Shown: piece after piece, positions 40,700-42,962 of the stretch
Layout of the letters: every line of letters begins with the position of its first letter
Position numbering within the stretch: position 1 is the first letter of the stretch
From: Candidatus Sumerlaeia bacterium
GTDB lineage: Bacteria; Sumerlaeota; Sumerlaeia; SLMS01; JAHLLQ01
NCBI GenBank assembly: GCA_028284075.1
Contig: JANQSL010000192.1
Span: 1 to 47,013 of the forward strand
Length of the DNA stretch: 47,013 nucleotides
Direction of reading: 5' to 3'
The notes under the pieces: model-generated
What the model saw: the letters and a program-made list of their open reading frames with translations, nothing else
Databases searched by the model: none
Told to the model about the DNA's origin: nothing
Made by a program: the position numbers and the translations under genes

Positions 40700-40930
40700 C
40701 CGGGAAACCTCCGTGATGACATTCCCGCCCCACTGCGGAGCGAGGCGCCGGACCGAAACAACTGAGTGGTCCGAAAGGACTGAGGAGCCACAGACCCTTG
40801 AAATCAAGCATATTGTGGATATAAACACACAAAAACACAGATTGTTCGCAGAAAATCAAAGTGAAAGAATCGCCGTTTTACGATCCTTTGTAACCATTAA
40901 GTCATTTGAAATCAATGTGATGAGTTGGCT
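40700..40930 (-). promoter_or_regulatory. AT-rich 230-bp intergenic region upstream of the BMC operon (putative promoter/operator region)
   Basis: Marked local drop in GC (e.g. catattgtggatataaacacacaaaaacacagattg...aaatcaatgtgatgag) between the P-loop NTPase stop and the first BMC-H gene; contains TGTG/CACA-rich repeats. Confidence 0.3.
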
Positions 40931-41596
40931 TTATGAGTGAGAAACGGCTGCCGTCCGTTCACAGGCGTCATACAGGCGGAGGATGGCTTCGCGGCCGTTT
41001 CCTTCACAAGAGGCCAGAAGGTCTGGCGTACTGTATCCCGGCAAATCTCTGATCACGCCTTGTTGCGGCACCGGGAGTTGAGCGAGTCGCTCCTCCACAA
41101 TCTGAGCGAATGCGGTTGGGCAGATGGACACGTCAATATGAGCACCGTGGTTTAGAGTGGCATGCGTCGTGAAAACAAGTCCTCTCTCCAGAATCCGTGC
41201 AGTAAACCGCAGAACGGATAGTTGTCGGCGAGGGAGGACCTCCGCTCCGTCCAGCAGGAGAACGTCGCATCGTACGAGAGTGGCAAGCCAGTCGGAGGGG
41301 AGTGTTGAATTTTCTTCATGACAGAAAATCCGCCCTGTTGACAGGCCTTCAAGACAAAGGTGCTTGCCGATTGTGGCAAGAAGCGTCGATTTCCCCGCAC
41401 CGTGTGGGCCACACAGCTCGCCGCTCCATCCATGGTCCTCGAGCTGATTCAGGACGTATTCCCTCCCGAGGTTGGCGGAGAAGACATAGTCGCAGTATCC
41501 GGGACTCAGGTCGCGCACGTTGAACGGGTTGCGTGACAGTCCGCCACGGATTCTTGACCTGCGGCTGTCTTCCAACTCCGCAACGTGGATTGTCAT
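40931..41596 (-). CDS. P-loop NTPase, Hda/DnaA-like AAA+ architecture (Walker A GPHGAGKST, Walker B DVLLLDGAE)
   Basis: ATG 41594-41596 overlaps the stop of the upstream ORF (ATGA). Motif order (box-like NPFNVRD... Walker A ... hhhhD) resembles Hda; no search done. Confidence 0.55.
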   Translation of the reverse strand: MTIHVAELEDSRRSRIRGGLSRNPFNVRDLSPGYCDYVFSANLGREYVLNQLEDHGWSGELCGPHGAGKSTLLATIGKHLCLEGLSTGRIFCHEENSTLPSDWLATLVRCDVLLLDGAEVLPRRQLSVLRFTARILERGLVFTTHATLNHGAHIDVSICPTAFAQIVEERLAQLPVPQQGVIRDLPGYSTPDLLASCEGNGREAILRLYDACERTAAVSHS

Positions 41597-42012
41597 GGTG
41601 GAGGCGGCTCCTGTGGCAGCGATGCGTTGCGATGAGAGGGGCGGATGGTGATTTCCTTTTCCGCCACGGCTTCCTTTTCTCCCTTCGCTTTGACGTACAC
41701 GCCAACCTGCCACTTGATCTTCAACTTCACGCCCTGATAAGTCCATGGCATCATGGGAAGAGAAAACGCAAACCGCCTTTCAAAACGGGGCGAAACGTCT
41801 TCATCCTTTTCCAGAAGCTTCTCGACTCGCGCTGCCTCGCGGTTTTCATCACCCCGTCCCTCCGTATGCCAGACAAGAGCGGCATCAGCGTACTCACACT
41901 CCCACGATGCCGGGGCGGAGATTGTGACACGGCCGCTGAGACGGTCTCCGGGAGAGAAGTCAGGACATGATTCGTCCAGTTCGATTTGAATATCAAAACC
42001 CGCGTTCTTCAT
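41593..42012 (-). CDS. Hypothetical 139-aa protein with an arrestin-N/beta-sandwich-like motif pattern (RFERRFAFSLP...P)
   Basis: Translationally coupled on both sides (ATGA overlaps); no signal peptide; Pro-rich C-terminus. Confidence 0.45.
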   Translation of the reverse strand: MKNAGFDIQIELDESCPDFSPGDRLSGRVTISAPASWECEYADAALVWHTEGRGDENREAARVEKLLEKDEDVSPRFERRFAFSLPMMPWTYQGVKLKIKWQVGVYVKAKGEKEAVAEKEITIRPSHRNASLPQEPPPP

Positions 42013-42962
42013 CGTTGAGACTCCGGAATAACCCGGAATTCGAAGAATTCCTTCACATCCGGACGTCCGGGTATGTCCATGGTGACTTCAATGCCCCAGC
42101 CAAGCTGATTGTTCGAGGCTTTGAAGGAATGCATGGCGTCGTCGGGAACGGACGTCTCGCAAGACACGAGCGGCGTTGAGCCTGTCGTTCGAAGGTTCCC
42201 GCCCTGATGCAGAACCTCACTCAGAACATCTTCCATCGATGTGTGCGTGTTCGTTCCGACACGCCAGCGAACAGTCTCGCGGCAAATGAGCTTCATGGTG
42301 AGGCTTGTGATCTCGAAATCTCCCTTCTGGCGCAGCGTCAGGCGAATACGATCTCCGGGTCGAACCGGCATGCGGTCAATTTCCAGACTCGTGCCGCCGA
42401 CAAGAAGACATCGAAGCAGCGCATGCCCCGCAAGTCCGATCACAAACAACCCGATGAGGCAGAAGAACCCGATGAAGATGATGGGAAAATACTTGAAACC
42501 ACTGGATCCGAAATCATTCCAGACATGATAGAGTGCGAACCACGAGATGCCGTTCCAGAAAGCCGCGAAGAACGTCAGACCGAGGAATCGGGCGAAGGGC
42601 GAGGCTTCCGTTCCGAGCAGAAATCCGCCTCTCGACCCCCTCTTTGCCCGCGCTTTCGGAAAGAACTTGCTGGTTTTCCAGTTGTCGTCGAACCCGGAAT
42701 CTTTTGGACGCTTTCGCCCCACATACTTGTGACCGAACAAACCGCCCCAGATGATTGCAAGGCCGACTACCAGAAAGATCGCACCCATGATGATAAACAC
42801 AGCCGGGTGCCCGTCCATTTCGACCGTGTTTCGGCCGAAAAGAAGAAGTGTTCCCTGAAAGAGAACAAATCCTCCCATTCCCGCGAACGGAAGCCCGAAA
42901 AAAAACAACAGACAGCCGCCAATAAACCGGCCGGCAGGTCCCGCCTCTTTCTTTTTGGTCAT
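42009..42962 (-). CDS. Membrane protein (about 4 TM helices) with a roughly 130-aa C-terminal soluble beta-rich domain
   Basis: Hydrophobic segments CLLFFFGLPFAGMGGFVLF, FIIMGAIFLVVGLAIIWGGLF, FLGLTFFAAFW, IIFIGFFCLIGLFVIGLAG; first gene of a coupled 3-gene operon. Confidence 0.5.
   Translation of the reverse strand: MTKKKEAGPAGRFIGGCLLFFFGLPFAGMGGFVLFQGTLLLFGRNTVEMDGHPAVFIIMGAIFLVVGLAIIWGGLFGHKYVGRKRPKDSGFDDNWKTSKFFPKARAKRGSRGGFLLGTEASPFARFLGLTFFAAFWNGISWFALYHVWNDFGSSGFKYFPIIFIGFFCLIGLFVIGLAGHALLRCLLVGGTSLEIDRMPVRPGDRIRLTLRQKGDFEITSLTMKLICRETVRWRVGTNTHTSMEDVLSEVLHQGGNLRTTGSTPLVSCETSVPDDAMHSFKASNNQLGWGIEVTMDIPGRPDVKEFFEFRVIPESQR

Follow-up and report, generated by a model that had tools for sequence, protein, structure and literature searches.

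Among described proteins, those closest to the membrane-anchored and the small beta-rich product of the locus treated here include the N-lobes of the alpha-arrestins ARRDC3 and TXNIP (Pfam Arrestin N-like clan CL0135). A further close system is Spo0M of Bacillus subtilis (PDB 5cl2), which consists of a single soluble chain and is not known to have a transmembrane (TM) anchor or a coupled NTPase gene. Spo0M, a poorly understood soluble protein, represents the arrestin clan in prokaryotes according to a survey from 2008 (PMC2515105). The same survey reports it in Firmicutes, Actinobacteria, Cyanobacteria, Proteobacteria and Halobacteria, but not in Planctomycetota or Sumerlaeota (PMC2515105). 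The locus described here lies in a window of 47,013 nucleotides, by which we mean the whole stretch of DNA that was analysed. Three genes were confirmed on its minus strand, in the order g1, g2, g3, with the following features:

42009–42962, minus strand: g1, 317 aa; inner-membrane protein, four TM helices and then an arrestin-like lobe in the cytoplasm
42405–42923, minus strand: membrane domain of g1 (residues ~14–186), comprising TM1–TM4 and a basic cytoplasmic TM2–TM3 loop
42012–42395, minus strand: C-terminal arrestin-type beta-sandwich lobe of g1 (g1C, residues ~190–317)
42009–42012, minus strand: ATGA overlap of g1 stop and g2 start (...CAA CGA TGA over ATG AAG)
41593–42012, minus strand: g2, 139 aa; soluble, beta-rich protein, probably a second arrestin-like lobe
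41593–41596, minus strand: ATGA overlap of g2 stop and g3 start (...CCA CCA TGA over ATG ACA)
40931–41596, minus strand: g3, 221 aa; minimal AAA+/STAND-like P-loop NTPase, consisting of base and lid only
41384–41410, minus strand: Walker A motif of g3 (GPHGAGKST, residues 63–71), read from the sequence
40864–40889, minus strand: predicted terminator-like hairpin from a consensus scan, 10-bp stem with U-rich tail

The open reading frame listed for g3 extends from 41746 to 40931 (271 aa), and the ATG at 41596, which yields the protein of 221 aa, is the start matching the operon and all homologues. The initial annotation spoke of three ATGA junctions; both existing junctions are indeed of this type, but the number was a miscount, since three genes make two junctions. 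A further ATGA is carried by the start of g1 (GTGAATGACC). The frame ending there has a stop eight codons upstream and contains no start codon, and therefore no gene overlaps g1 at this site. Among 78 independent loci with both genes g1 and g2 overlap by 4 nt in 52 and are fused in three, and g2 and g3 overlap by 4 nt in 34 of the 66 loci with a full triad; these counts are upper estimates, because the choice of start codons leans to the codon closest to the upstream stop. Gene order, strand and overlaps repeat in other genomes, and the arrangement thus exceeds chance.

Conservation of the triad in other genomes had been named beforehand as one test of the operon, and the outcome is decisive, as the triad turned out to be widely conserved. 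Relatives of g1 were found in at least 434 species genomes (616 sequences at E ≤ 0.01 in a candidate-limited profile search), together with 958 relatives of g2 and, in an exhaustive profile search, 2183 g3 representatives at E ≤ 1e-10. The mere three clusters obtained by a single-sequence search with g3 reflect a limit of sensitivity, since the exhaustive profile search gave thousands. In 78 of 81 independent loci g1 lies next to g2, and in 66 all three genes follow each other in the same order and on the same strand. Four of the 15 loci lacking g3 end at a contig edge. About ten have room and nevertheless no g3 beside g2, for example in the Pirellula staleyi group, so that the ATPase is not obligatorily linked. 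Carriers of the triad belong to the Planctomycetota (mainly Pirellulales and Thermoguttaceae) and to Candidatus Sumerlaeota, the lineage of the window itself, and the closest relatives of all three proteins are found in Sumerlaeota and then in Planctomycetota. No family in Pfam, NCBIfam or PADLOC claims g1, g2 or g3, and a literature search found nothing on the three-gene set. As far as tested, the trio is an undescribed system, as had been supposed.

The position of the triad next to a microcompartment (BMC) locus had suggested that it could be a regulatory or accessory module of that locus. Indeed, the first BMC-H gene follows the stop codon of g3 on the same strand at a distance of 231 bp, across an AT-rich spacer, and the identical arrangement is found in another assembly of this sequence (L001). 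Nevertheless, a terminator-like hairpin is predicted, as a pattern match, 3′ of g3. It is located about 40 nt past the g3 stop within a spacer of 34% G+C (0.344 at positions 40800–40930 versus 0.559 for the window) and is part of the minimum-free-energy fold that RNAfold gives for the 96-nt spacer (whole fold −15.2 kcal/mol). Of 81 other loci, only one (L048) has BMC shell genes at 8 kb or less from the triad, and there the BMC match is found about 2.3 kb past the first gene of the triad on the opposite strand. The closest homologous triad, with 54–63% identity, has no BMC neighbours and is flanked by genes for an ABC transporter and for a Ser/Thr kinase. Since just one locus besides this one has BMC genes near the triad, the adjacency is incidental. 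The comparative context largely refutes a role of the triad in the BMC locus; this linkage was discarded on these grounds, and we consider it highly improbable. The locus L002 had hinted at a Ser/Thr kinase as a recurrent partner; this was likewise dropped, as it is inconsistent across loci.

For g1 an AlphaFold2 model was built on an alignment of 104 sequences (mean pLDDT 78, above 90 across residues ~190–317). It places TM helices at residues 27–48, 53–83, 122–152 and 158–188, and thus bears out the four helices of the initial annotation. The N-terminus and the successive loops contain 4, 1, 12 and 0 Lys and Arg residues, which gives an N-in/C-in topology with a cytoplasmic C-terminal domain. 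Residues W136 and N137 ('WNGI') in TM3 are invariant in the alignment columns throughout the family. Some relatives of g1 harbour a DUF3592 domain (best E 1.3e-14) on the periplasmic side between TM1 and TM2. Two structure-search methods identify g1C, in its predicted structure, as an arrestin-type lobe. At the sequence level the window g1 remains below the curated threshold of the Pfam arrestin clan (Rgp1, 14.4 bits, cut-off 31), and profile searches of PDB sequences with g1 or g3 retrieved TM noise or P-loop matches only.

The arrestin fold originally proposed for both beta-rich parts is hence borne out in the model of g1C, while g2 matches members of the arrestin clan only, none of them significantly. 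Thirteen of 54 g2 members show sub-threshold matches to Arrestin_C; these matches are full-length and colinear (residues 19–127 to profile positions 18–137 of 137, E 0.0015). The best E value for an arrestin match in the g2 family is 1e-4, still short of the Pfam cut-off, and the top arrestin score in the families is 25.2 bits for Arrestin_C (cut-off 27.7) in P0114. With Arrestin_N the window g2 itself scores 15.4 bits, below the curated threshold of 24.9. A g2 profile retrieved seven matches among PDB sequences at E ≤ 10, all of them to Vps26 or beta-arrestin (E 0.17–1.6). Judged from these sequence matches and from fusions of g1 with g2, g2 is probably the second arrestin lobe. In the window the lobes are encoded by separate genes and do not form a hinged two-lobe chain, but natural fusions of g1 lobe, linker and g2 in one chain exist in P0114, L035, L077 and L083. 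The linkers measure about 3–25 aa, the four fusions are counted as independent, and g2 always follows the g1 lobe. Direct sequence homology between g2 and g1C could not be demonstrated. Their hhalign comparison is colinear but non-significant (E 0.13), and a g2 HMM reached at most about 2 bits against 104 g1 sequences, barely above reversed or shuffled controls; direct homology of g2 and the g1 lobe was dropped. The assignment of g2 to PilZ (PF07238) was rejected as well. Partial matches occur in 13 of 54 members (profile positions 37–92 of 102 only; best 22.1 bits, cut-off 22.5), a full-length match including the RxxxR region is absent from the g2 family, and the window g2 gives no match. Translations of g2 and g3 were inspected by eye and contain no hydrophobic N-terminal segment suggesting export.

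The g3 model (pLDDT 92) consists of an AAA+ alpha/beta base and a helical lid with no further domain, and on this model g3 has the AAA+ fold. In keeping with the superfamily, g3 has base and lid, Walker A, the acidic residues of Walker B, a polar residue at sensor 1 and an arginine in the lid. Both Walker motifs are found as annotated, the Walker B region reading LLLDGAE with D116. Residues H65, G66, G68 and K69 of Walker A are invariant in 102 family members, and Walker A as a whole, D116/E119, H145 and R202 of the lid vary little or not at all. Between beta4 (139–144) and beta5 (152–155) neither a helix nor a conserved Arg is seen in alignment or predicted structure, and the arginine-finger (box VII) position has no conserved Arg. 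The N-terminus (MTIHVAELEDSRRSRIRGGLSRNPFNVRDL) contains NPF as its conserved element. Hda, RFC, Cdc6, ORC1 and DnaA are the top structural neighbours, so that the description of g3 as an Hda/DnaA-like NTPase stands as a structural likeness, but not as membership of the Hda family. The assignment to Hda (NCBIfam TIGR03420) was rejected, with 19.6 bits against an equivalog cut-off of 194.8 and motifs missing; the best score of any g3 family member is 26.7 bits. Hda carries an N-terminal beta-clamp-binding motif of the QL[SP]LPL type, and no motif of this type is present in g3.

The structural neighbours and the weak Hda match are in line with a regulator that is tethered to the membrane and serves a DNA transaction, be it replication initiation, repair or transcription. 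In this reading, which we regard as unlikely, g3 would work on a DNA-bound partner in the manner of Hda, DnaC or a clamp-loader subunit and be held at the membrane by g1 and g2. Gene context in planctomycetes points the same way, as a stand-alone gene for a helix-hairpin-helix protein resembling the RNA polymerase alpha-CTD lies 5–300 bp upstream on the same strand in 39–42 loci, with a divergent uvrD gene and with Mfd and PolX nearby; uvrD, the alpha-CTD-like gene, an Obg-like GTPase gene and PolX are stable neighbours in this phylum. These DNA-related neighbours are, however, missing from every Sumerlaeota locus including the window, and the planctomycete synteny may therefore reflect lineage inheritance. 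Furthermore, g3 contains neither a DNA-binding domain nor a clamp-binding motif and falls far short of the Hda model, and no DNA role is known for arrestin lobes.

A defence function had also been considered. In such an anti-phage or abortive-infection module a minimal STAND-like switch would sense infection via the beta-sandwich proteins and act through a four-TM membrane effector. Sub-threshold matches to AAA_16, NACHT and nSTAND were obtained for 50–85 of the 102 g3 members, those to NACHT and nSTAND in about half of them, and the Walker B pattern (hhhhDGxE) together with TTH at the end of beta4 resembles NACHT/STAND motifs, which we count in favour of this explanation. Sumerlaeota contexts differ between genomes, with toxin-antitoxin genes and a tail-fibre-like protein among the neighbours. 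No support for defence was found: PADLOC-DB 2.0 models gave matches at P-loop level only (E ~1e-3 or weaker), none of them significant, and no copies were found in 2.9 million viral contigs (g1 family profile) or in 72,556 plasmids (query: one planctomycete g1). Typical STAND proteins of defence have sensor repeats, which g3 lacks, and the G+C content of the triad equals that of the rest of the window. A housekeeping-type synteny is stable over many genera of Pirellulales, similarity tracks taxonomy, and near-universal presence at a fixed locus within an order is partly shown. A defence module is thus quite improbable.

The best explanation, to which we give about even odds, is a two-piece arrestin-like adaptor under the control of an ATP switch at the cytoplasmic face of the inner membrane, encoded by a chromosomal, vertically inherited and self-contained three-gene operon. 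Vertical inheritance is read from the taxonomy of the nearest relatives, the stable planctomycete neighbourhood, the absence of copies from the viral contigs and plasmids searched, and the native G+C content. The products of g1, g2 and g3 would form a complex on this face, in which the four TM helices of g1 would tether one arrestin-type lobe and translational coupling would match the output of g2 to that of g1. As the second lobe, g2 would remake a two-lobed, arrestin-like clamshell together with g1C. Three observations were counted for this pairing, namely the four fusions, the cytoplasmic location of both g1 termini and of the lobe, and the lack of an export-like N-terminus in g2 and g3. 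With its full set of nucleotide-binding motifs but no evident arginine finger, the stand-alone NTPase g3 would most likely serve as an ATP/ADP switch and not as a ring motor. Counted for the switch were the conserved nucleotide-binding residues, the missing Arg between beta4 and beta5 and the sub-threshold AAA_16, NACHT and nSTAND matches. The switch may govern assembly of the clamshell or binding of a partner, and the clamshell itself may serve as the adaptor of a client in or close to the membrane. A bolder version, in which the anchored two-piece arrestin captures membrane-protein clients via the nucleotide switch as a counterpart or relative of eukaryotic arrestin/Vps26 cargo selection, is unlikely in our view.

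The triad adds to Spo0M a different arrestin-fold system in a large number of species genomes, with a fixed architecture of TM-anchored lobe, free lobe and minimal AAA+/STAND-like NTPase. Should the parts cooperate in this way, bacteria would have their first membrane adaptor based on an arrestin fold, and this fold would for the first time be coupled to an ATP switch. The triad would likewise offer a testable entry to inner-membrane protein organisation in PVC-type bacteria. An adaptor of Planctomycetota and Sumerlaeota would fall in a bacterial group that is debated for eukaryote-like membrane biology. Three new family definitions are available for genome annotation, and a false lead is removed: the triad does not belong to the BMC locus.

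Compared with the alpha-arrestins, g1 and g2 are bacterial, their lobes are encoded by two genes instead of one chain, one lobe sits on a four-TM anchor, and the genes share an operon with an ATPase. They also lack PPxY or other known partner motifs, and their scores stay under the Pfam cut-offs. The families of g1 and g2 fall short of the threshold of the Spo0M model too. Vps26 and Vps26C (retromer, retriever) and Rgp1, likewise among the closest known systems, are eukaryotic, peripheral and not integral proteins that work in large coat or GEF complexes, whereas the triad has no counterparts of Vps35, Vps29 or Ric1. The membrane proteins with DUF3592 (PF12158), a domain for which we know of no function, resemble the subset of g1 relatives that carry it between TM1 and TM2; the window g1 has a TM1–TM2 loop of 10 residues and no DUF3592 match. 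In comparison to Hda, DnaA domain III, clamp-loader subunits and Cdc6/ORC, g3 is set apart by its invariant N-terminal NPF in place of a clamp motif, by the lack of a conserved box VII arginine, by a Walker B motif of the DGxE and not the DD/DE type, and by a gene context in Sumerlaeota that is free of replication genes.

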